A stretch of 55,614 nucleotides of DNA from Gemmatimonadales bacterium (GTDB lineage Bacteria; Gemmatimonadota; Gemmatimonadetes; Gemmatimonadales; GWC2-71-9): NCBI GenBank assembly GCA_035711365.1, contig DASTCF010000086.1:1-55614 (forward strand), given 5' to 3'. The notes under the pieces were generated by a model. That model was given only the letters and a program-made list of their open reading frames with translations, did not search any database and was not told where the DNA came from. Below, in pieces: positions 13,109-29,312 of this stretch (the first letter of the stretch is position 1; each line of letters begins with the position of its first letter). Position numbers and translations under genes: made by a program.

Positions 13109-13131
13109 GGCGGCTCCTCCGGCGAGCCGGG

Positions 13132-13539: not shown

Positions 13540-13616
13540 ACCTTCCTCCTGAGTACGGACCGCCGCGCGGCCCGGGGTGAGCTACTGTGCGCTTCGGCCG
13601 GCCTGGCCGCTGGCGC

Positions 13617-14108: not shown

Positions 14109-14138
14109 CCCTGCCTCCTGGGTCGTGGCGGGAAGATA

Positions 14139-14152
14139 CCGCATTGCGGCAA
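14139..14152. promoter_or_regulatory. candidate operator repeat 1 (CCGCATTGCGGCAA)
   Basis: Inverted repeat CCGCA-T-TGCGG located 31-44 nt upstream of the phaR ATG. An identical 14-mer recurs 31 nt further on. Confidence 0.35.
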
Positions 14153-14167
14153 AAAGTCAAGCCTGGA

Positions 14168-14183
14168 TGCCGCATTGCGGCAA
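14168..14183. promoter_or_regulatory. candidate operator repeat 2 (perfect 7-1-7 palindrome TGCCGCATTGCGGCA)
   Basis: Perfect palindrome at 14168-14182. It shares the 14-mer CCGCATTGCGGCAA (14170-14183) with repeat 1. An inverted 9-nt copy TGCCGCAAT lies at 14232-14240. Confidence 0.4.
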
Positions 14184-14305
14184 TCCGGCCCGCTCCGCAC
14201 CGCGCCGCGTGGATCCGGTTCCGCTGGCGGCTGCCGCAATTCCGTGGTAGATAACTACATACGCGACCACCGTTCCCCGCTCCTGCGCTCCGTGGAGACC
14301 GCCCG

Positions 14306-15847
14306 ATGTTCATCCCGACCCTCCTGCTCAAGAAGCTCTACACCCTCGGCAGCCTGACCAATGTCGAGCATGGGGTGAGGTTCGCCATCAAGAATCGGCT
14401 GAGCAACGCCGAAGTCACCGAGCTCCTCAGCGTCGCGATTGACAACACCTCAATCCCGCGCGACGCAGTCGCGATTCACCTGGGCGACAGCCGGATCATC
14501 CAAGGCAGCGCCGTCCATCCGGACGCGCCGATCGAGTTTCCCCTCGGGGCGATCCTGACGCTGGTCGTCCAGTCCCCGCATCTCACCCCGGGAAAGCACA
14601 TGGTCGACATTGCGGTCAAGACCAGGCCATTCGGGAAACTGAGCTTCGACGTGGAGGACTCGATCCAGGCAGAGACCGAACAGCTGGTCCGGATACCCCG
14701 GGATGCGAAGGACGACTACGGGGAGGCTGCGATCCGGGCACGACAGGATTTCATCCGGAGTCAGACCGGCGCGACGCTCGATCACGTGACCCGGTTTTCA
14801 TTCGATGCCCACAGGGTCCAGGGGAACTGCGAGCATTTCACCGGTGTCGCCCAGATTCCGCTGGGCATCGCGGGACCCCTCACCATTCACGGCGAGCACG
14901 CGCAGGGAGATTTCTTCGTGCCCCTGGCCACGTCGGAGGGCACGCTGGTCGCGTCCTACAACCGCGGCATGAAGGTGGTCAACCTGTCGGGTGGCGCCCG
15001 GTGTACGATCGTGGGCGATGCGATGCAGCGGGCGCCTGTGTTCGTATTCGAAGACGCGCGCGCGTGCCGGGAATTCGTTCGGTGGGTCGGGGAGAACACG
15101 GCGAAGATTCGGGAGGAAGCGGAGGCCACCTCGAGTGTCGCGCGGCTCCAGTACATCGACCCCTACCTCGCCAACAAGTTCGTCTTCCTGCGGTTCAACT
15201 ACACGACGGGGGATGCCGCGGGCCAGAACATGGTCGGCCGTGCGACTTTCGCCGCGTGCAGCTGGATCCTGGACAACTATGCCGGCATCAAGCACTTCTA
15301 CCTCGAGTCGAATTTTGCCACCGACAAGAAGGCGTCCCAGATCAACATCATGCGGACCCGGGGCAAGCGCGTCACGGCCGAAGTGACCGTCCCGCGCGAC
15401 GTGCTGATCCAGCAGATGCGCGTGGAGCCCGAGAGCCTCGTCTATCATCACGGCGTGGCGAATGTGGGCGCCTTCCTGAGCGGCGCGAACAACAACGGCG
15501 CCCACTCCGCCAACGGCATCACTGCGATGTTCATCGCGACTGGCCAGGACGTCGCCAATGTGGCGGAGTCGTCGGCAGCCATTCTTTACGCCGAGCTTAC
15601 GCCCGATCGCGACATGTACCTGTCCATCACCATTCCCTCGCTCATCGTCGCAACCCACGGCGGCGGAACCGGCCTTCCCACCCAGAACGAGTGCCTCGAG
15701 ATGCTGGGCTGCCGCGGCAAGGGGAAGGTCAACAAGCTCGCCGAAATCATCGCCGGCGTGGTGCTCGCGGGCGAAATCTCCCTGGCCTCGGCGATCTCGT
15801 CCTCCGACTGGGTCTCCAGCCACGAGCGCTACGGACGCAACCGCTGA
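14306..15847 (+). CDS. class-I-type HMG-CoA reductase catalytic domain with an extra ~150-aa N-terminal soluble domain
   Basis: Motifs: IPLGIAGPLTIHG...VPLATSEGTLVASYNRG, TGDAAGQNMV, ATDKKASQIN..RGKRVTAEV, ANGITAMFIATGQDVANVAES, ATHGGGTGLPTQ. The N-terminal residues 1-150 have no motif I recognise and no TM helices. Confidence 0.8.
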   Translation: MFIPTLLLKKLYTLGSLTNVEHGVRFAIKNRLSNAEVTELLSVAIDNTSIPRDAVAIHLGDSRIIQGSAVHPDAPIEFPLGAILTLVVQSPHLTPGKHMVDIAVKTRPFGKLSFDVEDSIQAETEQLVRIPRDAKDDYGEAAIRARQDFIRSQTGATLDHVTRFSFDAHRVQGNCEHFTGVAQIPLGIAGPLTIHGEHAQGDFFVPLATSEGTLVASYNRGMKVVNLSGGARCTIVGDAMQRAPVFVFEDARACREFVRWVGENTAKIREEAEATSSVARLQYIDPYLANKFVFLRFNYTTGDAAGQNMVGRATFAACSWILDNYAGIKHFYLESNFATDKKASQINIMRTRGKRVTAEVTVPRDVLIQQMRVEPESLVYHHGVANVGAFLSGANNNGAHSANGITAMFIATGQDVANVAESSAAILYAELTPDRDMYLSITIPSLIVATHGGGTGLPTQNECLEMLGCRGKGKVNKLAEIIAGVVLAGEISLASAISSSDWVSSHERYGRNR

Positions 15848-15856
15848 CCGCCGCCG

Positions 15857-16864
15857 ATGCGTGACCTGCTCTCCGACCTCGACCGACTGAGTGCGCGTGG
15901 TCCTGTCGGCCGCGGCGTCGTGACCTCCGTGTGGGGATCTGCCCCGAGACCCGAAGGAGCCTGCCTGCTGGCAACGGCAGAGGGAGGCGTTGCAGGGTCG
16001 GTCTCCGGAGGCTGCGTGGAGGCGGCCGTGGCGGAGGAAATCGCTGCCGCCCTGAGGCGGGGGACACCGCGGCTGGTCCGGTACGGAGTGACCGACGAGC
16101 GCGCCTGGGAGGTGGGACTGGCGTGCGGGGGCACCATTGAGGTGCTCGTCCAGCCTTCCGTTCCCGACGCGGTGATCGCGGCGGCGAGGGGCCCCGGTGG
16201 GGTCGTGGTGGCGTCCCCGCTGGAAGGCGAAGATCTCGGCAGGCCCACTGTCATCCGTGAGGATGCGGACAGCCCGAAGTCCCCGCTCGTTGCCGCCGCA
16301 CTCGAGGCACTCCGCCACCAGCGGTCACGCACGGTGCGGGTCCCGTTCCCCGCCGGCGAGGTTCCGGTCTTTCTCGAGGTGTTCCCCCGCCCGCCGCGAC
16401 TGGTCATCGTCGGGGGTGTGCACCTTGCCGCGGCGCTGGTTCCGCTGGCCCGAACACTGGGGTATCGGACCCTCGTGGTAGACGGGCGGCCCGCATTCCT
16501 CACCCGGGAACGCTTCCCGGACGCCGATGACCTCGTGCACGGATGGCCGGCGGAGGCGTTCGCTCGAATCGGGCTTGATTCCGCGACGTACGTCTGCGTG
16601 CTGACGCACGACCCCAAGTTCGATGACCCGGCGCTGATGCTGGCACTTCGCTCGCCCGCGGCGTACGTCGGTGCGCTGGGCTCCCGGAAGACGCAGGGAG
16701 CACGCCGGCACCGCCTCCGCGAGGCCGGCCTCACGGACGCGGAGCTCGCGCGCCTCCACGGGCCGATCGGCCTCGACCTGGGCGGCCGGGGGCCGGCGGA
16801 AACCGCGCTTGAAATCCTGGCGGAGATGACGGCAGTGCGGTACGGAAAAGAACCCGACAGATGA
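15857..16864 (+). CDS. XdhC/CoxI-family accessory protein
   Basis: N-terminal XdhC_CoxI-type segment (WGSAPRPEGA...GSVSGGCVE) and C-terminal Rossmann-like segment (LVIVGGVHLAAALVPLARTLGYRTLVVD). Starts 9 nt after the HMGR stop. Confidence 0.8.
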   Translation: MRDLLSDLDRLSARGPVGRGVVTSVWGSAPRPEGACLLATAEGGVAGSVSGGCVEAAVAEEIAAALRRGTPRLVRYGVTDERAWEVGLACGGTIEVLVQPSVPDAVIAAARGPGGVVVASPLEGEDLGRPTVIREDADSPKSPLVAAALEALRHQRSRTVRVPFPAGEVPVFLEVFPRPPRLVIVGGVHLAAALVPLARTLGYRTLVVDGRPAFLTRERFPDADDLVHGWPAEAFARIGLDSATYVCVLTHDPKFDDPALMLALRSPAAYVGALGSRKTQGARRHRLREAGLTDAELARLHGPIGLDLGGRGPAETALEILAEMTAVRYGKEPDR

Positions 16865-16925: not shown

Positions 16926-17378
16926 TCATCGAAGTGCCGCCAGTTTCCGCAGTTCGCGCATCACCGCGCGCTGGGCCACCGCATCCCGCACGGCAATGAA
17001 GATCGTATCGTCGCCGGCAATCGTCCCCACCACTTCCGCCCAGGCCAGGCGATCCAGCGCCGCGCCGACACGGTTCGCTTCACCGGGTGGCGTCCGGAGC
17101 ACGATGAGCGAATCTCCCGCCGGTTCCACGCCGATCAGCCCCTCCGCGATCCGCCGCTGGTCGGGATCGTCACTCGGCCGGCCGACCACCACCGGGCGGC
17201 GATAGGCGCCGTCCACTTTCACGAGGTGCAGCGCGGAGATGTCGCGGCTGACGGAGGACTGGGTCACCTCCCACCCTTCCTGTGCCAGCGCGTCGGCCAG
17301 CTCCTCCTGGGTCCGGATGGAGCGGGTGCTGATCAGCTCCAGAATCTTCAGGTGCCGCTGGCGTCGATCGCCGGTCAC
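16926..17378 (-). CDS. argR: arginine repressor ArgR
   Basis: Winged-helix N-terminus RQRHLKILELISTRSIRTQEELADALAQEGWEVTQSSVSRDISAL and C-terminal oligomerisation/arginine-binding domain (GTIAGDDTIFI). GTG start overlaps the argH stop (GTGA). Confidence 0.9.
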   Translation of the reverse strand: MTGDRRQRHLKILELISTRSIRTQEELADALAQEGWEVTQSSVSRDISALHLVKVDGAYRRPVVVGRPSDDPDQRRIAEGLIGVEPAGDSLIVLRTPPGEANRVGAALDRLAWAEVVGTIAGDDTIFIAVRDAVAQRAVMRELRKLAALR

Positions 17379-18766
17379 GGCTTCTTCCCGGGGGGAGGGC
17401 CCGCGAGACGACGGAGGGCGGATTCGAACCGGCGGCGCTCCCGGATCGCCCAGGCCCGGGTCGCCCGCAGACGACCCCGCAGATGCGCCAGGCCGAGATT
17501 CCCGAGTCCACCTGTCGACCGGCGTCTCGCCAGGATCTCCTGCTTCGAGGGAGACGGGAATACCGCGCCTCGCGCGAGCTCATCGGCGACTTCGCGGTAG
17601 GCACGGCGAAATGGCGTGCCGGCTTCAACGCGTCGCATCACCTCGTCTGTGGCGAGGGTCCCATTGTGAATCGCGGCAGCGCAGCGCTCCCGATTGATGC
17701 TGATCGACGGCACGGCCACCACCATCATCTCGAGCATCTCCAGCGTTCGCGTCGTCCCGCGGATGAGCGGCTCCTTGAGGAGCTGGAAATCCCGGTGGTA
17801 CCCTCCGGGCAGCCCGCCTGCCAGGTACCGCACGGCGGCGTGATCCCCCGCGACTCCAGCCGAGCGCGCCCGCGTCAACTCAAACAGGTCGGGATTCCGC
17901 TTGTGAGGCATGATGCTGGACCCGGTGGAGAGCGCCACCGGCAATGTCAGGTAGCCGTACTCCTCCGCGCTGAACAGGATGACGTCCGCGCTCAGACGGC
18001 CGAGGTCATGGCCCAGCTCCCCGCACCAGGCAAGGACGGCAGCTTCGAGCTTTCCCCTTCCGAGCTGGACGGCGGCCACGTTGTGCTCGACGGCGCCGAA
18101 GCCAAGCGCCCGGGCAGTGGCCTCCCGGTTCAGGTCGAGCGGCACACCGTACCCGGCCGCACTACCGAGCGGGCAGCGGTCCACCCGCGCCCATAGCGCA
18201 GGCAGGGATTCGAGCGTGTCCAGCAGGCTTTCTCCGTATGCGGCAGCCCACAGCCCGACGCTCGAGGGCATTGCGCGCCGGGTGTGGGTGTAGCCGGGCC
18301 AGAGCACGGTGGCGTGCCGGGCGGCAAGGCGACCGAGCGCCTCGATCAGGTCCGTACCGATCGCGTGCAGTTCGAGAAGCATCTCCTTGAGGTACAGGCG
18401 GATGTCCACGGCGACCTGATCATTCCGGGATCGGCCGGTGTGCAGTTGTTCCCCGGATATTCCGTGCCGGCGCGTGAGCCAGTCCTCGACAGCGGTATGC
18501 GCGTCCTCGTGGACGAGGTCGATGGTGAGTTTGCCGTCCTCGATCGCACGGAGGGCAGCGCGCAGTCCGGCCCGCAGGCGCAGGTGCGTGCGTGTCGAAA
18601 GCAGTCGCGAGGCCCGGAGCCCTTCGACGTGCCCGAGGCTGCCGTACACATCCCACGGCAGCAGGCGCAGGTCCCACCCCCGGTCCTCGCCGATCGTATA
18701 CGTCAGCATGCGCGGGTCGATTTCCCCGGACGACCACAGCGTTCTCGGGCGGCGGCGGGGGCTCAT
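17375..18766 (-). CDS. argH: argininosuccinate lyase
   Basis: Fumarate-lyase signature GSSIMPHKRNPD. ATG at 18766 overlaps the stop of the upstream gene (ATGA). The ORF extension to 18835 is judged spurious. Confidence 0.9.
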   Translation of the reverse strand: MSPRRRPRTLWSSGEIDPRMLTYTIGEDRGWDLRLLPWDVYGSLGHVEGLRASRLLSTRTHLRLRAGLRAALRAIEDGKLTIDLVHEDAHTAVEDWLTRRHGISGEQLHTGRSRNDQVAVDIRLYLKEMLLELHAIGTDLIEALGRLAARHATVLWPGYTHTRRAMPSSVGLWAAAYGESLLDTLESLPALWARVDRCPLGSAAGYGVPLDLNREATARALGFGAVEHNVAAVQLGRGKLEAAVLAWCGELGHDLGRLSADVILFSAEEYGYLTLPVALSTGSSIMPHKRNPDLFELTRARSAGVAGDHAAVRYLAGGLPGGYHRDFQLLKEPLIRGTTRTLEMLEMMVVAVPSISINRERCAAAIHNGTLATDEVMRRVEAGTPFRRAYREVADELARGAVFPSPSKQEILARRRSTGGLGNLGLAHLRGRLRATRAWAIRERRRFESALRRLAGPPPGKKP

Positions 18767-19839
18767 TGCAGGTACGCCCGGGCGAGATCCGCGTAGAAGC
18801 GGCGCGCGGCCGTCACCTCGCGCAGGTCCACGCATTCATCCGGCGTGTGCGAGCGGCTGCTCGTCCCCGGACCGCACTTGAACCCGTCGGCCTCGCGGAG
18901 GAATACCCAGTCGGAGCAGGTCGGGCTGCCGTAATGCCGCGCCTGGGGCCGGACCCGACTGGCGGCCGCGAGAAGCGGGGAGTCCAACCTCGTCTCACAG
19001 GGCACGAGCCGGTCCGACGTCACGAGCACCTCGCAGTCCAGCGCCTGACTGAGTGCATCGGCAAGCTCGGCGTGCGTCCAGGCCGGCGTGCTTCGGACGT
19101 CGAGAATCGCCCGGGCGCGCGGTGGCGTGACATTCCGGCTTACCCCTGCTTCGACCATCGTTGGGGTGACGGTCGGATGGCCCAGCAGCAAGTGCGGCCG
19201 GTCGCGGAAGAGCCCTTCGAGTTTCACCAGATCCCGGCTCAACAGTACCAGCGCATTGGTGAACGGACCGTCCTCGCTCACCCTGCCGGCGTGGCGCTGG
19301 TCCCCGTGCGCCACGAGATCCACCATCATCAATCCCCGCTGGGCGACGGCGAAGTCGAGATTCGTCGGCTCCCCGACCACGGCCGCGTTCACCGGCCCGG
19401 CGCGGGCGACGAGGTCCGGCATGCTTGTGTTGCGCGTCTCCTCGCCGAATCCGAGGAGCAGGAGGAGGTCGCCGCGTGCCGGCCCACCCTCCTGCGCCAC
19501 GTCCATCGCGGAGACGAGCATGGCGGCGACCGACGCCTTGGCATCGCCCGCGCCACGCCCATGAAGCATGGTGCCCTCGATGACGGGTGTGAACGGGTCG
19601 CGCGTCCATCCTGCACCGGGCGGGACGACGTCGAGGTGTGACACGAACGCCAGGGTTGGGCCGGCCTTCCGCCCCGCGATGCGCAGGCGCACGCCGGTCT
19701 CATCGCGCGCGACCGGGAGCCCCCATCCCCGCACGGTCTCCTCCACAAGCCGTGCCACGCCCTCCTCGTCCCCGCTGACCGAAGGGATCGCGACCAGGTC
19801 CCGCAGGAGCAGGATTTCAGTCGGCCAGGTCGACGCCAA
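18763..19839 (-). CDS. M20-family metallo-deacylase, ArgE-like (predicted N-acyl-citrulline/ornithine deacylase)
   Basis: LLRDLVAIPSVSGDE, SHLDVVP and GRGAGDAKAS motifs of M20 peptidases/ArgE. Positioned inside the arg operon. The only in-frame start is a TTG at 19839. Confidence 0.75.
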   Translation of the reverse strand: MASTWPTEILLLRDLVAIPSVSGDEEGVARLVEETVRGWGLPVARDETGVRLRIAGRKAGPTLAFVSHLDVVPPGAGWTRDPFTPVIEGTMLHGRGAGDAKASVAAMLVSAMDVAQEGGPARGDLLLLLGFGEETRNTSMPDLVARAGPVNAAVVGEPTNLDFAVAQRGLMMVDLVAHGDQRHAGRVSEDGPFTNALVLLSRDLVKLEGLFRDRPHLLLGHPTVTPTMVEAGVSRNVTPPRARAILDVRSTPAWTHAELADALSQALDCEVLVTSDRLVPCETRLDSPLLAAASRVRPQARHYGSPTCSDWVFLREADGFKCGPGTSSRSHTPDECVDLREVTAARRFYADLARAYLQ

Positions 19840-20752
19840 GGTAGGTCGCCTTTTCCTTTCGCCCCACGATCATCGTGCCGCAGCCGGCACCAGTGAAGAC
19901 TTCGAGGAGGATCGCGTCGGGAGCACGGCCGTCGATGATGTGGGTGCGCTCGACGCCGCCCGTCGCCGCCCGAATGCAGGCCTCGACCTTGGGCCGCATC
20001 CCGCCGGCAATCGCCCCGTTGGACATCAGGCTGGCCAGGTCATCGGGGTCGGCGAATGCGACGAGGCTCGTGGGATCGTCCCGGTCCCGCAACACTCCCG
20101 GCGCCCCGGTGAGGAAGATGAGCTTCTGCGCCCGAAGCGCCACCGCCAGCGCCTCGGCGACTGTATCCGCGTTGACGTTATAGACGCGCCCGTCGTCGTC
20201 GCCCGCCAGGCTGGCCACGACCGGGACGAACCGCGCATCGAGCAGCGTGACCAGCACGCGAGGATCCACGCGGTCGATGTCGCCGACGTGTCCGAAATCG
20301 AGCGTGATCGAAGCGCCCGAGTCATCCACTGTCTGGACCGGAGGGCGGCGGTGCGCCGTGAGCAGGTCGGCATCCACTCCGCTCAATCCGACCCCCTGCA
20401 CATGGTGTTCGCGCAACGCGGCGAGGAGATCCACGTTGAGCTGCCCGGCGTAGACCATCTTGGCAACGCCCAGCGCCTCGTCGTCGGTCACCCGGCGGCC
20501 GGCGACCATCCGCGGCTCGTGCCCCAGCCGCCGGCTCAGGGCGGTCGCCTGCGGCCCTCCGCCATGGACCACCACGAGACGGATGCCGAGACTGGAAAGC
20601 AGCGAGACCTGGGCGGCCACTCCATCGAGTGCCTCGAGGTCCGCGAGCACTTCGCCGCCCAGTTTCACCACGAAGACCTGGTCGCGATAGGCGCGAACGT
20701 AACGCAGGGCCCCCTTGAGGCCAGCGATGCCCTTTGAAGTGTCGATCGACAA
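19817..20752 (-). CDS. argB: acetylglutamate kinase (no fused GNAT domain)
   Basis: Amino-acid-kinase motifs VVKLGGEVL, VVHGGGPQ, NVNADT. No in-frame ATG downstream of the argF' stop. TTG at 20752 is preceded by GGAGGAG (20760-20766). The longer ORF to 21055 overlaps argF'. Confidence 0.8.
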   Translation of the reverse strand: MSIDTSKGIAGLKGALRYVRAYRDQVFVVKLGGEVLADLEALDGVAAQVSLLSSLGIRLVVVHGGGPQATALSRRLGHEPRMVAGRRVTDDEALGVAKMVYAGQLNVDLLAALREHHVQGVGLSGVDADLLTAHRRPPVQTVDDSGASITLDFGHVGDIDRVDPRVLVTLLDARFVPVVASLAGDDDGRVYNVNADTVAEALAVALRAQKLIFLTGAPGVLRDRDDPTSLVAFADPDDLASLMSNGAIAGGMRPKVEACIRAATGGVERTHIIDGRAPDAILLEVFTGAGCGTMIVGRKEKATYLGVDLAD

Positions 20753-20771: not shown

Positions 20772-21791
20772 TCACGCCCCGTTGCGGAGCAATGCGAGCA
20801 GAAGCGCCCGCTGCACGTGCAGGCGATTCTCCGCTTCATCCACCACGACGGCATTGGGTCCATCGAGGACCGCGTCGTCGATTTCCACGTTGCGGCGGAC
20901 GGGCAGGCAGTGCATGACGATCGCCTTGCCGTTCCGCGTCGCACGAACCCGGTCCGCCGTGAGCCGCCAATCCCGGTGCCGGTCGAAATAGGAGCGCTGC
21001 TGTTCCGGGTGCCCATAGAAGGCCACCGGCCCCCACGACTTGGCATACACGGCATCCGCCCCCGACATCGCCGCGTCCTGATCGTTCACTATGGTCACGG
21101 GGCGGGCGCCGGCCTCCCCTGCCGTGGCCTGGATCACCTGCATGTCCTCCGGGTCCAGATCGCACCCCTCGGGCGCCGCGATGGTGACGTCCATCCCCAT
21201 GCGGGCGGCGGCGAGGGCTGCGCTGACCGGCACCGCCGTGGGCAGCGCCTTCGGGTGCCACGCCCATGTGAGCACGAAGCGCTTCCCATGAGTCTCCCCA
21301 AGCCGTTCGCGCAGAGTGAACGCGTCCGCAAGCTCCTGGCACGGATGGCGCCGGGCAGATTCCAGGTTGATCACCGGCCGCTCGCAGTGCTGCGCAAACT
21401 TCCGGATCACCGCGTCCTTCCTGGCCGCGGCCCATTCCGCGCCGCGGGGAAAGGCGCGCACCGCGAGGGCATCTGCGTAGCGCCCTAGCACGCGCGCGGC
21501 CTCCGTCACGTGCTCGACGGAGTCCTGGTCCATGACTACCCCGTCCTCGGTCTCGAGCGCCCAGCTGCCCTTCCCAGGTTCCAGCACCACGGCGTGCCCG
21601 CCGTGAAGAAACATCGCGGCCTCGAAGCTGGTGCGGGTGCGGAGGCTCGGATCGAGGAACACCATCGCCAGGATCTTCCGCTCCAGGCCTCCCTTTATCT
21701 CGCCCCGCTTCACGCGAGCCGCCAGCTGGAAGAGCGCCTCGATTTCGCCGGGCGACCAATCCTCCACTGCCAAAAAGTCGCGCTTGGTCAC
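20772..21791 (-). CDS. argF': N-acyl-L-ornithine carbamoyltransferase (AOTCase/SOTCase family, not classical OTCase)
   Basis: DPSLRTRTSFE (carbamoyl-phosphate site), RHPCQELAD, YAKSWG, MHCLPVRRNVEIDDAVLD, DEAENRLHVQRALL. From memory, these follow the Xanthomonas/Bacteroides N-acyl-ornithine transcarbamylase pattern nearly residue for residue. GTG start overlaps the argD stop (GTGA). Confidence 0.8.
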   Translation of the reverse strand: MTKRDFLAVEDWSPGEIEALFQLAARVKRGEIKGGLERKILAMVFLDPSLRTRTSFEAAMFLHGGHAVVLEPGKGSWALETEDGVVMDQDSVEHVTEAARVLGRYADALAVRAFPRGAEWAAARKDAVIRKFAQHCERPVINLESARRHPCQELADAFTLRERLGETHGKRFVLTWAWHPKALPTAVPVSAALAAARMGMDVTIAAPEGCDLDPEDMQVIQATAGEAGARPVTIVNDQDAAMSGADAVYAKSWGPVAFYGHPEQQRSYFDRHRDWRLTADRVRATRNGKAIVMHCLPVRRNVEIDDAVLDGPNAVVVDEAENRLHVQRALLLALLRNGA

Positions 21792-22960
21792 GCCAGAACC
21801 TCGCGCAATCCGCCCAGGAGGCGGTCGGCCTCGGAGATCGAGAACGAGAGCGGTGGCAGCAGGCGCAGCACGTTCGGATCGGCAGAGGTGCCGGTCAGGA
21901 TCCGGTGGGCGAAGAGCGCCGATTGAATCTCCCTGGCGCTCCGGCCGAAATCGAGCCCCAACAGCAGTCCACGGCCCCAGACTCTCCGGGCGCCGAGGGC
22001 GAGCGCACCGGCCGTGAGGTGGGCGCCGACCCGGCGGGCATTGGCCGGCAGCTGCTCGTCGGCCAGAACATCGAGTGTCGCCAGTGCCGCGGCACAGGGG
22101 ACCGGTCCGCCGCCGAAGGTGCTGCCGAGATCGCCCACTGCGATGCCCTCAGTCACGTCCTGGGTCGCGATGACGGCACCGATCGGTATCCCCGAGGCAA
22201 GACCTTTTGCCAGGGTCAGGAGGTCAGGCGTGACCCCGAAGGACTCGGCGGCTGTGAACTGACCGGTCCGGCCCACGCCGCACTGTATCTCATCGAAGAT
22301 GAGCGCGACGCCGCGCTCGGTGCAGATCCGCCGGGCGGCATGGAGGAACTCGGCGCTGCAATCCCTCGCGCCAGCCATGCCCTGCACCGGCTCCACGATC
22401 AGTGCCGCGATGGACTCATCGAGGACCGCATCGAGTGACGCCACATCGTTGAACGCCACGCGGCGCGAGAGCGCGATGCCGGCCCGGCGGGCGGTTGCCT
22501 CATAGCCGGGGCCATCGCAACACGCGAGGGTGGCCACCGTTCGCCCGTGCCATCCTCCGGTCACCGAGGCGACCGCGATCCGCCCGGTCCTGCGGCGTGC
22601 CAGGTGCAGGGCATTCTCGTTGGCTTCCGCCCCCGAATTGCAGAAGAACACCCGGTCGAGCGGTTCGGGACACAGTTCCGCCAGCCGGGCGGCCAGCCGT
22701 TCCCGGTTGGGATGCGGGACAGCGGTGGAGTAGAACAGCAGCCGCGCGGCCTGATCCGCGATCGCCTGCACGACGCGCGGATGGCTGTGGCCGGTCGCGG
22801 CGACGGCATGCCCGCCGTAGGCGTCCAGCCACTCAAGACCGTCCTCGTCGATCAGCCAGGAGCCGCGGCCCGACACCGGTCGCACCGGCATCTGGGCATA
22901 GACCGGCAGCAGGGCCGACCCGCCGGCGTTTTTCGATGCCCGCTGCTCGGCCTTCAGCAT
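21788..22960 (-). CDS. argD: acetylornithine (N-acyl-ornithine) aminotransferase, class-III PLP enzyme
   Basis: FCNSGAEANE, DEIQCGVGRTG and TLAKGLASGIPIG (PLP-lysine region). ATG at 22960 overlaps the argC 3' end by 7 nt. Confidence 0.9.
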   Translation of the reverse strand: MLKAEQRASKNAGGSALLPVYAQMPVRPVSGRGSWLIDEDGLEWLDAYGGHAVAATGHSHPRVVQAIADQAARLLFYSTAVPHPNRERLAARLAELCPEPLDRVFFCNSGAEANENALHLARRRTGRIAVASVTGGWHGRTVATLACCDGPGYEATARRAGIALSRRVAFNDVASLDAVLDESIAALIVEPVQGMAGARDCSAEFLHAARRICTERGVALIFDEIQCGVGRTGQFTAAESFGVTPDLLTLAKGLASGIPIGAVIATQDVTEGIAVGDLGSTFGGGPVPCAAALATLDVLADEQLPANARRVGAHLTAGALALGARRVWGRGLLLGLDFGRSAREIQSALFAHRILTGTSADPNVLRLLPPLSFSISEADRLLGGLREVLA

Positions 22961-23982
22961 GGGAATGCGCCCGTCAGCCGGAGCCCCGCCCGCTCGTCGA
23001 GCCCGAGTGCGAGGTTCATCGCCTGCACCGCCTGGCCGCCGGCGCCCTTGATGAGATTGTCGAGCACGACCATGACCTGCACCTCTCCAGTGGTGGCGTC
23101 GCCCGCGGCGTGCAGATGCACCTCATTGGTGCCGACGACGTGGGTGAGTTCAGGGGGCTGTGCGAGCACGCGGACGAACGGCCGGCCGCGGTAGGCCGCG
23201 GCGTACCGATCGGCCACTTGGCCGGCCGCGGCGCCGGAAACCGTGGCGTGCATCGTGAGGTGGATCCCGCGCACAAATGGACCGGAGTGCGTCATGAGGC
23301 GGGCGACCGCATCGGTCCGACCGGTCCACTCCCGCCACGCTTGCAGGACTTCGGCCTCGTGACGATGGCCCAGAACCGAGTAAGCGAAGAGATTATGCGC
23401 CCTGGTCGGGTGGTGGGTCGTGGCCTTCGGGTGAACGCCCGCACCGCTCGAGCCGGTCACCGCGAAGAGCGCCGGGATTCCCGTCACGCCAAGGGTCGCC
23501 AACGGATGGAGCGCCAGCTGCGCCGCGGTTGCGAAGCAGCCCGGCGCCGCGAGCGCAGTCGCACCGGCAAGCCTTTGCCCCATCACATCCGCGAGCGCAT
23601 ACGTGAAGCGGGTCACGAACTCCGGCGCGGCATGCGGCCCATAGAACCGCTCGTAGAGCCGGAGGTCGCGCACCCGGAAGTCGGCGGCCAGGTCGACGAC
23701 CAACCCGGGCGCGGCCTCGAATACTTCGGATGCCACCCGCGCGGATTCCCCATGCTCGAGCGCGAGAAACACGACATCCCGGTGCCGGGCGGCCTCTCCG
23801 GCCCCGAGCCCGCTGAACCGCGCGTCGGTGAGGCTCGCGAGTGCCGGGTGGATGTCGGCGATCGGCTTGCCGGCCTGGCTCCGGCTTGTGGCGACGAGCT
23901 CGGTCACCTCCGGATGCTGCAACAGGATGCGGAGCAGCTCACCGCCGACGTAACCGGCCCCCCCGATCAGGGCCGCTCTCAC
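22954..23982 (-). CDS. argC: N-acetyl-gamma-glutamyl-phosphate reductase
   Basis: N-terminal GGAGYVGGELLR NAD(P) loop and active-site PGCFATAAQLAL. GTG start overlaps the stop of the upstream P-loop gene (GTGA). Confidence 0.9.
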   Translation of the reverse strand: MRAALIGGAGYVGGELLRILLQHPEVTELVATSRSQAGKPIADIHPALASLTDARFSGLGAGEAARHRDVVFLALEHGESARVASEVFEAAPGLVVDLAADFRVRDLRLYERFYGPHAAPEFVTRFTYALADVMGQRLAGATALAAPGCFATAAQLALHPLATLGVTGIPALFAVTGSSGAGVHPKATTHHPTRAHNLFAYSVLGHRHEAEVLQAWREWTGRTDAVARLMTHSGPFVRGIHLTMHATVSGAAAGQVADRYAAAYRGRPFVRVLAQPPELTHVVGTNEVHLHAAGDATTGEVQVMVVLDNLIKGAGGQAVQAMNLALGLDERAGLRLTGAFPC

Positions 23983-25037
23983 CTCGCCTCCAGAGCAGCC
24001 CGCACGACGCCGAGAAGGCCATCGGCGTCGCGCAGCGCATTGTGAGCCGGTATGCCGAGTGAGGCCCGGATGTAGTCGCGGCCGACTTCATTGTCGGTCG
24101 CCGGACCGGTGAGCGCGGTGATGGAAAGGCCGAAGGTGTGGCGCATGAGCTGGTCGGCGCCCCAACACCCGACCGGATCGGGTGCCGCCATCACCCACGC
24201 GGCACCGAGCCGCGACAGGTCAGGATCGCGGAGGATATCCTGAACGCCGTACTCGCCCAGAATGCCATCTCCCAGCTCGGCGACAATGACGTCCGGGCGG
24301 GCGGATTTCATGAGCCGGTTGAATATCCCCTTCGCGACGGGTACGGTCATCCCGGCCCGCGTGCTCGCCGCCCCGGCATCGTTGAACGTCAACGCCACGG
24401 CCGCTCCGGCGTCCTGCATCGCCAGGGTGTCCCGCATCAGGGACACGCCGGTCAGCTTGGCGGCGGCGACCTTCAGACCGCTCCGCGCGAGCCCCCGCAC
24501 CAGTTCGGTCGCGGCCACGGTCTTGCCAGCGTTCATGCACGTCCCGGCCACATAGACAACCGGCACCGAGCCTTCGAGGACTTCCGCCGTGGGCACCGCG
24601 CTGTCCCGAATGTGCGCCGGGCGCCCGATCCGATCCCCAAGGGCAGGAAACGCCAGGATCGCTCCGAGCACCTCCGCCTTGAATGGCGGTCCGATCTCGG
24701 GGTTCATCGACGTGCAGCGGCCGAGAATCCCGCCGAGGTTCAGGACTTCGATGGTGTCCCCAACGGCAAGGTGGGACGGCACCTCACCGGCGTAGCCGCG
24801 GAGGGCCCGTCGACTGCCGAGCGTCCCGGCCAGGACGTCGCCCTTGCGCAGCGAGACCATTCGCCCTGACAGGTCTTCCACGGTGTTGTACGTAGACTTG
24901 TCCTCGAGAATCCGGACCGCGAGGACATACCCCTCAGCGGCCAGGATGTCGTTCCCCACGATCACCTCAGGCGAGAGGTGCGCGTTCCGGGTCGAGGAGG
25001 CGATGCGGTCGAGGCGGACACGGGTCGTGGTGACCAT
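23979..25037 (-). CDS. uncharacterised protein: ~150-aa N-terminal domain plus BioD/DUF1611-like P-loop domain (GTCMNAGKT)
   Basis: 352 aa. Walker-A-like VAGTCMNAGKTVAATELVRGLARSGLKV followed by VAELGDGILGEYGV. Translationally coupled on both sides (TGATG with argG, GTGA with argC). No arg-pathway family motif recognised. Confidence 0.7.
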   Translation of the reverse strand: MVTTTRVRLDRIASSTRNAHLSPEVIVGNDILAAEGYVLAVRILEDKSTYNTVEDLSGRMVSLRKGDVLAGTLGSRRALRGYAGEVPSHLAVGDTIEVLNLGGILGRCTSMNPEIGPPFKAEVLGAILAFPALGDRIGRPAHIRDSAVPTAEVLEGSVPVVYVAGTCMNAGKTVAATELVRGLARSGLKVAAAKLTGVSLMRDTLAMQDAGAAVALTFNDAGAASTRAGMTVPVAKGIFNRLMKSARPDVIVAELGDGILGEYGVQDILRDPDLSRLGAAWVMAAPDPVGCWGADQLMRHTFGLSITALTGPATDNEVGRDYIRASLGIPAHNALRDADGLLGVVRAALEAR

Positions 25038-26233
25038 CAGGCACCCCGCCCTGCCCGGCGGGCCAGCAGCGACGGAATGGCCGCCACCCGGGCAAAATCG
25101 CGGGCCTCCTCCCCGGTCCAGAGCAGGTTCTCCTCGCCATACGTGGCGACGGAACGATCCATCATCGAGTGGGGACTCCGAGCGCCCACCACCTGGAACC
25201 TGCCGGGGGCGAATCGCACTCGCGTCTCGCCGGTGACGCGGCTCTGGGAGCTCGTGATGAGCGCCTCGATATCTCGGAGCGCCGGGTCAAAGTACTGACC
25301 CTCGTGCAGGCGGTCACCGTAGAAGCGGGCAAGCTGGTCCTTCCAGAACGCCTGCCACTTGGTGAGCACGAGCTTCTCCAGCTCGCGATGGGCACCGATC
25401 AGGACCAGCGCGGCACCGGCCTCGAAGCCGATCCGGCCCTTGATGCCCAGCGCGGTTTCGCCGACGTGAATCCCGCGCCCGAAGCCGTACGCGGATGCGA
25501 GGGCGTTCAGCGACTCGACCAGCTCCGGACCGGCAAGCGGAGTTCCGTCGAGGGCGACCGGCAGTCCCTGCTCCCAGTGCAGGACGACTTCGCGAGGTGC
25601 AGGGGGGTCGGCGGGAGGATCAAGCAGTTCCGGCGGCGGGCCGGCCCACGAATCGTGAGTCCACCCTCCGCCCCACGTCGTGCCCCACAGGCCGGCATTG
25701 ACGGAATAGGAGCCGGCCCGGGCCGGAACCGGGAGCTTCCGTTCGTTGAGATACGCGATCGCCTGGTCGCGGGTGAGCCCTTCCTCGCGGATGGGCGTCA
25801 CAATCTCCAGTTCGGGCGCGAGGACGCGGAGCGCGACATCGAAGCGCACCTGGTCGTTGCCGGCGCCCGTGGATCCGTGTGCCACGGCGCGTGCCCCGAT
25901 GGCCCGGGCCACCCCCACCACAGAGATCGCCTGCTGGGTGCGCTCGGCGGCGACACTCAGCGGATAAACCTCCCCGCGGAGCACGTTGCCCTGGATCAGG
26001 TAGCGGACGAATTCGTCAAAGACCTGCTGGCGGGCATCCACGTCGTGGTGTTCGACGGCTCCCACCGCGGTGGCCTGGCGGCGGATCGCGTCGCGCTCCG
26101 CCGGGCCAGCGCCGCCCGTATTGACGTATACGGTGTGGACCGCCCAGCCCTGCTCGCGCAGGCGGGGCACGCAGTAGGACGTATCGAGCCCGCCGGAGAA
26201 CGCGAGGGCGATGGAGCCGCGCTGAGTTTGCAT
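25037..26233 (-). CDS. argG: argininosuccinate synthase
   Basis: ATP-pyrophosphatase motif AFSGGLDTS, plus GSTGAGNDQVRF. ATG at 26233. Confidence 0.92.
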   Translation of the reverse strand: MQTQRGSIALAFSGGLDTSYCVPRLREQGWAVHTVYVNTGGAGPAERDAIRRQATAVGAVEHHDVDARQQVFDEFVRYLIQGNVLRGEVYPLSVAAERTQQAISVVGVARAIGARAVAHGSTGAGNDQVRFDVALRVLAPELEIVTPIREEGLTRDQAIAYLNERKLPVPARAGSYSVNAGLWGTTWGGGWTHDSWAGPPPELLDPPADPPAPREVVLHWEQGLPVALDGTPLAGPELVESLNALASAYGFGRGIHVGETALGIKGRIGFEAGAALVLIGAHRELEKLVLTKWQAFWKDQLARFYGDRLHEGQYFDPALRDIEALITSSQSRVTGETRVRFAPGRFQVVGARSPHSMMDRSVATYGEENLLWTGEEARDFARVAAIPSLLARRAGRGA

Positions 26234-26234
26234 A

Positions 26235-26250
26235 ATGCATAATTATGCAT
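26235..26250. promoter_or_regulatory. ARG-box-like perfect palindrome ATGCATAATTATGCAT (candidate ArgR operator)
   Basis: Perfect 16-bp palindrome starting 2 nt upstream of the argG ATG, inside an AT-rich island in a GC-rich genome. It resembles the TGAAT-W4-ATTCA ARG-box core with symmetrical A-to-C changes. The TGCATA unit occurs three times between 26229 and 26251. Confidence 0.55.
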
Positions 26251-26276: not shown

Positions 26277-27374
26277 TCAGCCGCCCAGCACCGTCTCCAC
26301 CACCGAGGTCAGCAGCGGGACATATCCCCGCCAGAAGAACGCTTCTCCGGCGTCGAGCGACCACGCCGGGCGCAGTCGGTAGAAGTCCCCGCCCCACCGA
26401 AGACCGGTCCACCCCGGGACCCTCGGCACGCTCGCGAAATCTCCGGCCAGGTAGTAGGCCGATGCCGCGCCGTCCCGCCGCAGGATGGCGGGGAATTGTA
26501 TCCGGAGCCCGGCTGCGCGGAGTGCCAGCTCTCCCTCATCGGACAGGTTCAGGCGATATAGGGCAAGCGGGGTGCTGCCCTCCGATTCAACCACGTCGAA
26601 CCAGGTCTCCGGTGCAGGGGCCCGGCGCATGCCGAGGGTCCTGCCGGCACGCGTAGGCACGATGTCGAGCACGCTCCCGCGGATCGCATCCTTCCCCAGC
26701 ACGATGATACGTCCATCGGCATGAGCCAGCAGGAGTCCGGGCCCGCGAAACGGCCATCGCGCCTGATGCTGCTGTTCCCATCCCACCACGGCCCAGCGCG
26801 GGGTCTCCTCTTCAAGGTCGTGCAGACGGCGGCCGGTCCAGCCGGACCAGCGGAAGCCGAGCAGGTGTTCCACTCGCTGGCGGACCTCGGGAGACGTCGG
26901 CTCTCCGATCGTATTGAATTCCGCCACGACGGTCGCCCCGGCGCGTGCCGCGGATTCCAGGAGGTCCGCCTCGGCCGTCGTGAGGCCGCCGTAGAGCAGC
27001 CGGCCCGCCTCGGCGGCTGCCGGTGGCTCGAGATCGGCCTGCCGCACGCCATAGGTATCCGCGACGTAAATGATCCGCCGCGTCAGGAAATCGGCCGGGA
27101 GCGGGCGCACGGACCACGCCCGCGCGGTGAGCGGCACGAACCCGGAATAATCCATCGCCGCATTGTAGGGCTCATGCGATGCCGGATGGACCACCTTCAG
27201 GTGATTGAGCAGCCAGATGACGGCGCGGTGCCCGCGGAAGGTCGTGTCCGGAACCGTCTTGTCCACGATGAGCACACCGAGCGGGCGGAGGGGGATCAGC
27301 CGCCAGGCGAGGCCCGGCGCGAGCGCCGCCAACAGCACCACGGTCGACAGGATGAGGAGGCCGGCCGGCCGCAT
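26277..27374 (-). CDS. membrane-anchored protein of unknown function
   Basis: One N-terminal hydrophobic helix (GLLILSTVVLLAALAPGLAW) followed by ~340 aa without any motif I recognise. ATG at 27374 lies 1 nt after the upstream stop (TGAcATG). Alternative ATGs at 27389 and 27395; the ORF-track start at 27431 is a TTG. Confidence 0.6.
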   Translation of the reverse strand: MRPAGLLILSTVVLLAALAPGLAWRLIPLRPLGVLIVDKTVPDTTFRGHRAVIWLLNHLKVVHPASHEPYNAAMDYSGFVPLTARAWSVRPLPADFLTRRIIYVADTYGVRQADLEPPAAAEAGRLLYGGLTTAEADLLESAARAGATVVAEFNTIGEPTSPEVRQRVEHLLGFRWSGWTGRRLHDLEEETPRWAVVGWEQQHQARWPFRGPGLLLAHADGRIIVLGKDAIRGSVLDIVPTRAGRTLGMRRAPAPETWFDVVESEGSTPLALYRLNLSDEGELALRAAGLRIQFPAILRRDGAASAYYLAGDFASVPRVPGWTGLRWGGDFYRLRPAWSLDAGEAFFWRGYVPLLTSVVETVLGG

Positions 27375-27375
27375 G

Positions 27376-29214
27376 TCACGGCCGTTCATCACCATCCCCT
27401 GGCGGCCGCAGCCTGTACGAAAGCGTTTCAAGAGTGCGCTCGAGCGCCGCTTCGTACTCCGGGCCTTCGACGAGGCCTCGAAGCCGGTCGCTCACCGGGA
27501 CAACCATCGGCGCTGGTTCCCAGGAAATGGTGGCTCCGCTTATGGCATCCACGACCAGCCCCTCTTCCACGGCTCGGCTCGCATCCACGAGCCGGAGGCC
27601 GATGAGCGCCCGCCGCATCGCTTCGAAGCGCGCCTGGCGGGCAGGATCGATGAAGCGGGTTCCGAAGGTGGCCACGAAGTATCCCGCGGGAGTGTACATC
27701 AGGCCGTCGAGCCCCAACTCCTGGCAAAGGACGAGGAGCCACGCGGAGATCTCCCGCAACAACCCGAGTCCCGGGTGCTTCTGGCCGGGAAGTGAGCGCT
27801 TCCCAGGCAGGAATGAGCGCCTTGGGTTCTGGAGCAGGAGCCACTCCAGGTACAACACCTCCATGCCGGGCAGCCGCGACGCGTCACGCCGGAACCGGAC
27901 CTCAACCAGGAGCTCCCGGCGGTTCGGGTCTCCGAAGAGTCGCACGGTGTCCCAGTCTTCCTGCCGCAGGTCGAGCTGCAGCGCGGGCTGCGCGAATCCG
28001 AGCGCACGGATCTGGCCGAGGAGGCCCACGCGCTCGAGCAACAGTTCCAGGCCCTGCGCCGTGTATCGCCCAAGCATGCGGTGCCGGCGTCCGCCTCCCG
28101 GCGAGAGCGCTGCCACGTCCTCGGCGGTGAGGCCCCAGTCCGGCCCGACGCCCGCAGAAGTCGCCGCGCCGTCCAGTGTGTGGTGAAGCTGCTCCGCTCG
28201 GCGCACGAGCATCTCAGCATTGGTCGGCGGCTCCACCACTGTGCCCGCGGCGAGCCATCCCAGGAACCGTGCCGAGTACCGCCAGGCATTCTGCCCGTAT
28301 CCCCCGGCGAGGACGATTACGAGTGGAATCTCCGCACCGGGGCGGCGAACTTGTTCCACCACGAAGCGGTCCCTGCTGAGCATGCCTTCTGCCGTGATGT
28401 TCCAGTCGCCAACCAGGTCATCGGCCGCCGGGTCAACGCCCGCGACGTAGAAGACGAGGCCGGGCGCGTGCTGCTGAACAACCGGCGGGAGGGTTTCGCG
28501 GAGCATGGTGAGGTACCGACCATCGTCGACGCCGGCCCCGAGGGCGAGCACCGTGGCGGCGACGGCCTCGCGCGGCCCCCAGTCGGCGTTGTGGATGCTG
28601 TAGGTATAGACACTCGGGTCCTTGGCGAAGATGGCGCGGGTGCCATTCCCATCATGCACGTCGAGGTCGACCACGAGGATCGGCTGGGAGAATCCGCGGG
28701 CGCGAAGCCGGGCGATCGTGATGGCGACATCATTGATGGCGCAGTAGCCGACGCCCCGGTCCGCCGTCGCGTGATGCAGGCCGCCACCCAGGTTGGCAAC
28801 CGGGACGCCGCTTCTGAGTGCAATGGCGGTCGCGACGATCGTGCCGCCGGTCATCAGCCGCTGCACCTCGAGGATCTGCTGCGCCCGGGCATCATCCACC
28901 GGCATGCCGACGACCGGCTCCATGCCCTCGGGGTGTTGCAGCGACTCGAGGTAGCGGTCGGTGTGGACGCGCCGGAGGTTTTTTAACGAGGCGGGCAAGG
29001 GGCGGACGACATGGCGGGGGCGGACGAGGCCTTCCTCGGTCAGGAAGGCGAGGATCATCTCCGCCCGCAGGTGATCGATGGGCGCCTCGGGCGCGGGGAG
29101 TGCGTATCCGGGATCGTACACCAGGGCGAGTGCGGAGTGCCCACCACCGCGAAGGCCCCGCCACATTCGTCGTCCGAGCCGGCGCGCGGCCGGTAAGAGC
29201 CCGCCCTCTTCCAC
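27376..29214 (-). CDS. histone-deacetylase-family (HDAC/acetylpolyamine amidohydrolase-like) deacylase fused to an uncharacterised ~250-aa C-terminal domain
   Basis: HDAC motifs: GGGLHHATADRGVGYCAINDVAI, VVDLDVHDGNGT, YVAGVDPAADDLVG, LAGGYG. The C-terminal domain (about nt 27376-28134) has no family I can name. Start chosen at GTG 29214, 8 nt after GAGGAGG. Alternatives are TTG 29286 (longest ORF) and ATG 29166. Confidence 0.75.
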   Translation of the reverse strand: MEEGGLLPAARRLGRRMWRGLRGGGHSALALVYDPGYALPAPEAPIDHLRAEMILAFLTEEGLVRPRHVVRPLPASLKNLRRVHTDRYLESLQHPEGMEPVVGMPVDDARAQQILEVQRLMTGGTIVATAIALRSGVPVANLGGGLHHATADRGVGYCAINDVAITIARLRARGFSQPILVVDLDVHDGNGTRAIFAKDPSVYTYSIHNADWGPREAVAATVLALGAGVDDGRYLTMLRETLPPVVQQHAPGLVFYVAGVDPAADDLVGDWNITAEGMLSRDRFVVEQVRRPGAEIPLVIVLAGGYGQNAWRYSARFLGWLAAGTVVEPPTNAEMLVRRAEQLHHTLDGAATSAGVGPDWGLTAEDVAALSPGGGRRHRMLGRYTAQGLELLLERVGLLGQIRALGFAQPALQLDLRQEDWDTVRLFGDPNRRELLVEVRFRRDASRLPGMEVLYLEWLLLQNPRRSFLPGKRSLPGQKHPGLGLLREISAWLLVLCQELGLDGLMYTPAGYFVATFGTRFIDPARQARFEAMRRALIGLRLVDASRAVEEGLVVDAISGATISWEPAPMVVPVSDRLRGLVEGPEYEAALERTLETLSYRLRPPGDGDERP

Positions 29215-29312
29215 GGGTGACGCCTCCTCTTGGCCGACGGTTGGCCGGCCACGACGGACGGTAGCGATCCCCGTTCGGCGGTTCAAGGGCCGGTTATTAT
29301 TGTCCCACCCGC

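Follow-up and report, generated by a model that had tools for sequence, protein, structure and literature searches.

The 55.6-kb stretch of DNA analysed here (the window), from a Gemmatimonadales bacterium, holds an arginine biosynthesis operon in which a gene that we call X lies between argG and argC. We suggest that X is the operon's missing first enzyme, which would N-acylate L-glutamate, most likely to N-succinyl-L-glutamate, and from the sequence evidence below we put the probability of this at roughly 0.65. An earlier sequence-only reading of the window had proposed X as a candidate first-step enzyme outside the GNAT family, and the proposal is supported by the arg-operon context of X, its evolutionary rate, its fusions to arg enzymes, and the lack of GNAT or ArgJ proteins in the window and among the operon neighbours examined. 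The same role has been predicted for Steroidobacter denitrificans ACG33_RS14135 in a preprint (GapMind 2026, bioRxiv 10.1101/2024.10.14.618325, Appendix 2); the idea is thus supported but not new.

An arginine operon without a recognised first-step enzyme

By Pfam and NCBIfam, the operon runs argG–X–argC–argD–argF′–argB–M20 deacylase–argH–argR (Table 1), which is the arg gene set that the sequence-only reading had named. Its account of X as a 352-aa open reading frame (ORF) coupled to both neighbours also agrees with the ORF, its translation and the junction sequences: X starts with ATG, the argG stop codon TGA overlaps this start (cTGATGg), and the X stop codon shares GTGA with the GTG start of argC, where a GGAGG Shine–Dalgarno sequence lies 5 nt upstream. 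X has a G+C content at third codon positions (GC3) of 0.83 in a window of 68% G+C, and a first search returned over 3,000 homologues, of which many reach about 80% identity and every one carries the label 'hypothetical'. On its GC3 and these homologues X is a real gene, and its nearest named homologues come from Gemmatimonadales metagenome-assembled genomes (MAGs).

Against NF003384 (cut-off 288), ArgF′ reaches 432 bits, and Lyase_1 is the sole domain of ArgH. A Pfam sweep of the called genes found no GNAT, ArgA or ArgJ (PF01960) encoded in the window, and AA_kinase is the sole domain of ArgB, with no GNAT domain. The lack of ArgA and ArgJ in the operon and of a GNAT domain fused to ArgB, noted from the letters alone, therefore holds within the window.

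X travels and evolves with the arginine genes

Grouped at 50% identity, the X family at E ≤ 1e-3 comprises 1,429 clusters, and its full-length relatives reach as low as about 28% identity. Using a degenerate DNA pattern on the P-loop region, we collected at least 120 loci, each 8 kb long, from species-representative genomes, so that the taxa are a sample, and compared them by tblastn with X and the arg proteins of the window. Among the loci listed, 70 belong to class A (at least 140 bits, mostly at least 200; 38–85% identity) and 50 to class B (60–118 bits, 27–41% identity, with alignments spanning most of both domains), the class limits of 140 and 200 bits having been picked after the scores were seen. 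The pattern fixes GKT, K194, G197, D203, G211-A212, D220 and G222, so the conservation of these residues in classes A and B is partly circular, and the proper measure is alignment A2, built from 61 diverse family members found by an unbiased HMMER search.

Same-strand arg genes lie within the locus in 68 of the 70 class-A cases, with argG upstream of X in 52 and argC downstream in 59, and none of the 50 class-B loci has arg genes beside the homologue. Class A is found in Gemmatimonadota, Steroidobacteraceae, Woeseiaceae, Chromatiaceae, Planctomycetota, Elusimicrobiota, Bdellovibrionales, Myxococcota, Peribacteria and Bacteroidota, as well as in Acidobacteriota (Pyrinomonadaceae, Holophagaceae and Thermoanaerobaculia), and the argG–X–argC position is kept in at least ten phyla. 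The class also includes locus L090 (194–1429), from an uncultured proteobacterium, where a homologue of 56% identity lies beside a type II secretion ATPase and a serpin, and L017 (2380–3411), from an Asbonarchaeaceae archaeon, with 29% identity and 182 bits. Across class-A loci, the median identity to the window protein is 47.2% for X, compared with 48.4% for ArgG, 46.9% for ArgB, 45.6% for ArgF′, 43.5% for ArgD and 39.6% for ArgC. Judged by these identities, X evolves at the rate of the core arg enzymes and as slowly as ArgG.

Ten unassigned operon neighbours of class-A loci from other phyla were searched for a hidden GNAT, and neither a GNAT nor an ArgJ was found among them; the unassigned class-A operon ORFs gave AstE-like deacylase, rhomboid and tRNA_bind proteins. 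In Pyrinomonadaceae, a gene of about 120 aa with a tRNA_bind domain lies between argC and argD (L035, 6992–7366; L053, 5817–6182). The deacylase itself is variable. In six loci (L009, L024, L031, L072, L105 and L126) argB runs straight into argH with no deacylase gene within 8 kb, and operons of this type are gammaproteobacterial (Steroidobacteraceae, Woeseiaceae and Chromatiaceae). The M20 deacylase is retained in Gemmatimonadota, some Acidobacteriota, Phycisphaerae and Myxococcota.

X is also found fused to arginine enzymes. Protein P0232 (673 aa from the upstream ATG at L004:9860) carries a complete X domain joined through a ~50-aa linker to a full ArgB, and its gene is identical on four contigs from four metagenome samples. 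In the same search we found ArgB–ArgJ fusions, in which a known first-step enzyme is joined to ArgB in a layout like that of X–ArgB. P0429 (721 aa) joins an X domain, 44% identical to that of the window, to an ArgC (43%) within an argR–argG–[X–argC]–argD cluster; it is the weaker evidence, being known from one contig seen in two samples. A further candidate X–ArgC fusion, P0242 (687 aa), contains out-of-frame, low-complexity stretches and was treated as a frameshifted gene call.

Predicted fold and conserved motifs of X

The AlphaFold2 model of X (predicted local distance difference test score, pLDDT, 84.6; predicted template modelling score, pTM, 0.85) has β-strands only in residues 1–130 and an α/β arrangement in residues 155–352. 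A Foldseek search of the PDB with the full model returned signal recognition particle (SRP) GTPases, HypB, BioD, 2obn and MeaB at E ~1e-5, with query-normalised template modelling (TM) scores of about 0.37, all aligning to the C-terminal domain. The BioD structures 1dae, 1dts and 3of5 gave E-values of 2e-5 to 7e-5 and target-normalised TM scores of about 0.5. The DUF1611 structure 2obn ranked seventh (E = 2.7e-5, TM 0.38–0.41), which is no better than the SRP GTPases, HypB and BioD, and 7XRJ (DgcN) is absent from the best 50 matches. X alone, or a shallow profile, found no match among PDB sequences; the A2 profile reached the P-loops of FtsY, BioD and MobB alone (E ~2e-4), aligning the X motifs to the BioD P-loop and to KP...G, and no DUF1611 or DgcN chain at E ≤ 10. 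On the model and the profile, the C-terminal domain is a three-layer, BioD-like SIMIBI P-loop fold.

The BioD-type motifs are all present in X, namely a GT-x4-GKT Walker A, a lysine after strand 2 and an acidic end to the Walker-B strand. In A2, G171 and K172 do not vary and T173 reaches at least 90% conservation; K194 (in AAAKLTG), which follows strand 2, is invariant in the X family, and the conservation of E254 is at least 90% in A2 and 100% in classes A and B. The strand end VAELGDG is one that we take to resemble VEGAGG of BioD. The two segments quoted in the sequence-only reading, VAGTCMNAGKT (163–173) and AELGDGILGEYGV (253–265), are both present in X and strongly conserved in the family. 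Conservation across classes A and B extends to the N-terminal domain, at E54, G58-R59, G66-D67, G74, R76, A78, G103 and G125. Modelled alone, this domain gave a poor model (pLDDT 58.6) with no significant structural neighbour; the LexA/UmuD′ C-domain was considered as its match and set aside (E = 0.25, not significant, on that poor model).

No Pfam or NCBIfam family matches X above threshold. The top Pfam match is DUF1611_C (PF07755) at 18.6 bits (cut-off 25; E = 1.3e-3), covering X residues 155–195 and profile positions 9–49 of 201, followed by CbiA at 17.3 bits (cut-off 25.4). X is far below the cut-offs of NCBIfam mobB and cobQ, and there is no family-level match to the AAA_26, CbiA or BioD models. 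The profile searches against DUF1611, BioD and CobQ that the sequence-only reading had suggested thus reach P-loop relatives but no family above threshold. Of its label for the Walker-A segment, the BioD-like P-loop stands, and DUF1611 stands only for a sub-threshold match confined to the P-loop; X does not belong to DUF1611, as this match is too low and the N-terminal domain is a different, all-beta one.

Acetylated or succinylated intermediates

The window ArgF′ aligns gap-free to PDB chains of Xanthomonas campestris N-acetylornithine carbamoyltransferase, which are a set of mutants that vary at residue 92 (chain index 112). It has valine at the position of Glu92 (DSVEH vs DTEEH), and its best PDB match is the Val chain. 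Replacement of Glu92 by Ala, Pro, Ser or Val shifts specificity to N-succinylornithine (bioRxiv 10.1101/2024.10.14.618325, citing Shi et al. 2007), and the same preprint reports that the ArgF′ neighbours of the ACG33_RS14135 family are non-Glu at this position; A/P/S/V (or I/T) in place of Glu was taken here as the mark of such neighbours, and the window ArgF′ agrees with it. Among 35 class-A loci, position 92 of ArgF′ is Ala in 17, Thr in 11, Val in 6, Gln in 1 and Glu in none. One Candidatus Peribacteria arg operon (L022, 4410–5282) has an AstE/AspA-family (succinylglutamate desuccinylase/aspartoacylase) gene between argB and argH, whose product may be the deacylase of a succinyl-type pathway in place of the M20 enzyme. 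Because ArgF′ is non-Glu at position 92 and an AstE-like gene occurs in the Peribacteria operon, the pathway probably runs through succinylated intermediates. The glutamate N-acyltransferase of the sequence-only reading can therefore be narrowed, with Val at the Glu92 position making succinyl more likely than acetyl as the acyl group.

Proposed role of X and alternative explanations

In the proposed pathway, X would N-acylate L-glutamate to N-succinyl-L-glutamate, the substrate for ArgB. ArgB, ArgC, ArgD, ArgF′ as a succinylornithine-type transcarbamylase and the M20 deacylase would then carry the product to citrulline, which ArgG and ArgH would convert to arginine. Within X, the P-loop domain would hold the nucleotide part of the acyl donor, and the all-beta N-terminal domain, with its invariant Arg, Glu and Asp residues (E54, R59, D67 and R76), probably helps to form the substrate site. 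For the donor we assume succinyl-CoA, in analogy to DgcN and to all other enzymes known for the step. Reaction, acyl group and acyl donor are all inferred, whereas the gene and its operon, the context in other phyla, the conservation, the fusions, the P-loop fold and the specificity residue of ArgF′ are shown.

Several points weigh against this assignment. The first-step role is a predicted one, both here and in the preprint. The absence of known enzymes covers the 55.6-kb window, and a small GNAT-type synthase or an ArgJ may be encoded elsewhere in the genome. Two class-A loci, L090 and L017, have no arg neighbours, and NCBIfam names ArgF′ 'N-acetylornithine carbamoyltransferase', at odds with the succinyl call made from residue 92. 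DgcN is weakly linked to X, which is no closer to DUF1611 than to BioD. Moreover, the BioD-like P-loop enzymes known to us use ATP or GTP and not CoA esters, so the assumed acyl-CoA donor may be wrong. As X is not a true DUF1611 member, its donor may be a CoA ester or ATP plus acid, and the choice stands between the acyl-CoA-dependent synthase that we consider probable and a ligase that we regard as unlikely.

Such a ligase would phosphorylate succinate or acetate at a carboxylate, and the α-amino group of glutamate would attack the resulting acyl phosphate, with no CoA ester involved. BioD, CobB/CobQ, CTP synthase and adenylosuccinate synthetase phosphorylate an oxygen before nitrogen attack, using ATP or GTP. 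The three BioD-type motifs are intact in X (GT-x4-GKT, K194 in AAAKLTG vs GYKPVASG in BioD, and VAELGDG), its nearest solved proteins by sequence profile are FtsY and BioD and not DUF1611 or DgcN, and BioD structures, with target-normalised TM scores of about 0.5, are among its best Foldseek matches. However, the known N-acylglutamate synthases all work with acyl-CoA or by acyl transfer; DgcN, the single P-loop amino-acid N-acyltransferase to have been characterised, has been described as an acetyltransferase; and DUF1611 is still the top Pfam match of X, though sub-threshold. Nothing in the X sequence tells apart a site for ATP and a site for the ADP moiety of CoA. ATP-dependent ligation is the chief alternative, though an unlikely one. 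The SIMIBI fold, with HypB, MeaB and SRP-type GTPases among the top Foldseek matches, is also consistent with an accessory NTPase or regulator, which might serve an arg enzyme as a chaperone or in its metal insertion or assembly (cf. HypB, UreG and MeaB), an alternative already listed in the sequence-only reading. We consider this improbable, since no G3E or SRP GTPase family is among the Pfam or NCBIfam matches of X, the partner set varies (the gammaproteobacterial operons keep X without the M20 deacylase), fusion to ArgB and ArgC and ArgG-like conservation suit an enzyme better, and the first step of the pathway would stay unfilled.

The operons in Steroidobacteraceae, Woeseiaceae and Chromatiaceae with no deacylase gene between argB and argH raise a further option, in which X is an ArgJ-like recycling transacylase that moves succinyl from N-succinylcitrulline or N-succinylornithine onto glutamate, filling both the ArgA and the ArgE gaps where a deacylase is unrecognisable; S. 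denitrificans is also noted to lack ArgE (bioRxiv 10.1101/2024.10.14.618325). This would leave the M20 deacylase beside X in the window operon and in several other phyla, and the AstE-like deacylase of Peribacteria, to be accounted for; an intact Walker A and Walker-B-like site would be unexpected for an energy-neutral acyl transfer, and the cycle would still require a priming synthase, all of which makes recycling very improbable. Least credible, to the point of being almost negligible, is that X is a passenger with a function unrelated to arginine. Its superfamily paralogues do occur in unrelated contexts, beside ABC (ATP-binding cassette) exporters or a short-chain dehydrogenase/reductase plus M20 fragment, and the two class-A loci without arg neighbours point the same way, but at least ten phyla retain the argG–X–argC order, with translational coupling, fusions join X to arg enzymes, and X evolves at the arg-enzyme rate. 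A role as first-step N-acylglutamate synthase thus remains our preferred explanation.

Class-B paralogues and the wider superfamily

Class B was found at L011, L012, L014, L023, L028–L030, L033, L036, L038–L040, L042, L043, L045, L047 and L048, among others, in Actinomycetota, marine Alphaproteobacteria, Bacteroidota, Haloferacaceae and Planctomycetota. Other Gemmatimonadota MAGs also carry class-B copies (L036, L083 and L117), and one Woeseiaceae MAG has both classes (class A at L024, class B at L014). There are at least two subtypes, marked by GNRYAPDQFEA...VE[IV]ADGL and E-x-GASPLEPYNGE. Directly after the GNRYAPDQFE subtype comes a gene for a fused ABC exporter at L128 (4908–7546), L129 (4923–7693) and L043 (4476–7477), the hosts being plasmids of Paracoccus and Sulfitobacter, and Streptomyces; near the pair, the two plasmids encode an Asp/Asn beta-hydroxylase, an S8 peptidase or an alpha/beta hydrolase. 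RefSeq labels this subtype 'DUF1611 domain-containing protein' or 'dethiobiotin synthase', although for a member scanned with Pfam the matches were marginal and confined to the P-loop. We considered class B as DgcN/DUF1611 and rejected this, as the Pfam matches are marginal and limited to the P-loop and a B2 member has no PDB match to 7XRJ.

A broader and rather speculative possibility is that X founds a new enzyme class, in which a BioD-like P-loop domain combined with a beta domain not described before would make N-succinylglutamate by ATP-dependent ligation of free succinate or by another mechanism distinct from those of GNAT and ArgJ. X would then be the arginine branch of a large unannotated superfamily in which class B N-acylates other amino acids or peptides, and the branch consistently paired with ABC exporters would be mislabelled.

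Genomic surroundings of the operon

Immediately upstream of argG, an extended AT-rich repeat, TGCATAATGCATAATTATGCATA, encloses the palindrome TGCATAATTATGCA. The palindrome is a candidate ArgR operator, a role inferred here, and would put the start of the regulated operon at argG. Further upstream on the same strand (26277–29286, minus) are genes for a 636-aa histone-deacetylase-family protein (PF00850) and a protein of 384 aa that Pfam does not match; this pair also precedes argG in the related Gemmatimonadota contigs L001 and L002. The stretch 11855–16864 has, on the minus strand, genes for a patatin-like lipase, a phasin and a PhaR-type regulator of polyhydroxyalkanoate (PHA). Beside these genes, on the plus strand, are an HMG-CoA reductase with an N-terminal domain and an XdhC-family protein, a pair that adjoins the arg operon in L001 too. 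The left end of the window (22–4378, plus) encodes an Eco57I/N6-methylase-type DNA methyltransferase (~700 aa) followed by a SNF2/ResIII-type helicase (~760 aa), which probably form a restriction-modification or related defence module.

Table 1. Features of the arginine operon and of X, in window coordinates
Feature	Coordinates	Strand	Basis
X, predicted alternative N-acyl (probably N-succinyl)-L-glutamate synthase	23979..25037	-	ORF, translation, arg context
X N-terminal domain, ~residues 1-150, predicted all-beta	24588..25037	-	AlphaFold2 secondary structure, conservation
X C-terminal BioD-like/SIMIBI P-loop domain, ~residues 155-352	23979..24575	-	Foldseek, family profile
X Walker A, G165-T-C-M-N-A-G-K-T173	24519..24545	-	Sequence
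X V252-A-E-L-G-D-G258, acidic Walker-B-like strand end (E254)	24264..24284	-	Conservation
argG, argininosuccinate synthase, first gene of the operon	25037..26233	-	Pfam, NCBIfam
argC	22954..23982	-	Pfam, NCBIfam
argD, N-acylornithine aminotransferase	21788..22960	-	Pfam, NCBIfam
argF′, N-acylornithine carbamoyltransferase, Val92 at acetyl/succinyl specificity position	20772..21791	-	NF003384, alignment
argB, N-acylglutamate kinase, 311 aa, TTG start	19817..20752	-	Pfam, NCBIfam
M20 ArgE/DapE-family deacylase, presumed N-acylcitrulline deacylase	18763..19839	-	Pfam, NCBIfam
argH, argininosuccinate lyase; longest ORF extends to 18835	17375..18772	-	Pfam, NCBIfam
argR, arginine repressor, last gene of the operon	16926..17378	-	Pfam, NCBIfam
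Perfect 14-bp palindrome, candidate ARG box (ArgR operator)	26236..26249	.	Directly upstream of argG start

Significance

Many arginine-prototrophic bacteria have no recognisable first-step enzyme, a long-standing gap in pathway reconstruction and auxotrophy prediction. If the proposed role of X is true, this gap would be closed for Gemmatimonadota, many Acidobacteriota, Planctomycetota, Myxococcota and several gammaproteobacterial families, covering thousands of soil and sediment genomes, and a P-loop fold would have been recruited to amino-acid N-acylation in biosynthesis. The family is easily assayed, as X is a single soluble 352-aa protein with cheap substrates. To the case made in the preprint, our analysis adds the X–ArgB and X–ArgC fusions, the rate match with the arg enzymes, the clean split from the non-arginine paralogues, and the result that X falls outside the true DUF1611 family.

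Comparison with known systems

X shares the GT-x4-GKT P-loop, the lysine after strand 2 and the acidic strand end with BioD, CobQ/CobB and the N-domain of CTP synthase. The likeness is limited to the P-loop core, and X differs in its extra N-terminal beta domain. DgcN (Yu et al. 2023, ISME J 17:537; PDB 7XRJ) is reportedly a D-glutamate N-acetyltransferase and the key enzyme of a D-glutamate N-acetylation/racemisation pathway. DgcN and the DUF1611 family (PF07755/PF17396; 2obn, 7XRJ) resemble X as P-loop proteins, and DgcN acts on the amino group of glutamate, as proposed for X. In contrast to DUF1611 members, X lies below the PF07755 cut-off, its match covers 41 residues around Walker A, and DUF1611_N (PF17396) has no Pfam match in X; DUF1611_N is Rossmann-like, whereas the X N-terminal domain is predicted to be all-beta. 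The substrate of X would also differ from that of DgcN in being L-glutamate, its role in being biosynthetic, and its acyl group in probably being succinyl.

ArgJ (PF01960, ornithine acetyltransferase/glutamate N-acetyltransferase) fills the first step in many bacteria that lack ArgA and, like X, is found fused to ArgB. It is an autoproteolytic Ntn-type enzyme that is not known to have a nucleotide site, and X has no sequence similarity to it and no PF01960 match. The GNAT-type enzymes, namely ArgA (a kinase-like domain plus GNAT), the ArgB–GNAT protein of Xanthomonadales, the short S-NAGS and ArgA2, have the reaction and operon position presumed for X, and the X–ArgB fusion echoes both ArgA and the bifunctional kinase/synthase. 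X differs from them in having no GNAT domain by Pfam and NCBIfam and an unrelated fold. Among these enzymes, ArgA2 BT3761 of Bacteroidetes is an N-succinylglutamate synthase (PMC9026213).

The closest comparison is with ACG33_RS14135, a hypothetical protein inside an arg operon, as is X. Its homologues never co-occur with ArgA homologues, and Foldseek matches it weakly to DgcN (PDB 7XRJ, E = 1.4e-7, with an rmsd of 5.6 Å) (bioRxiv 10.1101/2024.10.14.618325). Taking Steroidobacteraceae MAGs as stand-ins for S. denitrificans, we found that their arg-cluster proteins are 45–49% identical to X over about 340 aligned residues, the full length, with 250–304 bits of a maximum of about 750. The representative P0128 (48% identity, 304 bits) has close relatives named Steroidobacteraceae. 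Eight of these MAGs carry the X relative in the order argR–argG–X–argC–argD–argF′–argB–argH, from which the Gemmatimonadota operon differs by its added M20 deacylase and by having argR last. By full-length similarity and shared gene order, the Gemmatimonadota X is an orthologue within a family whose function has already been predicted.

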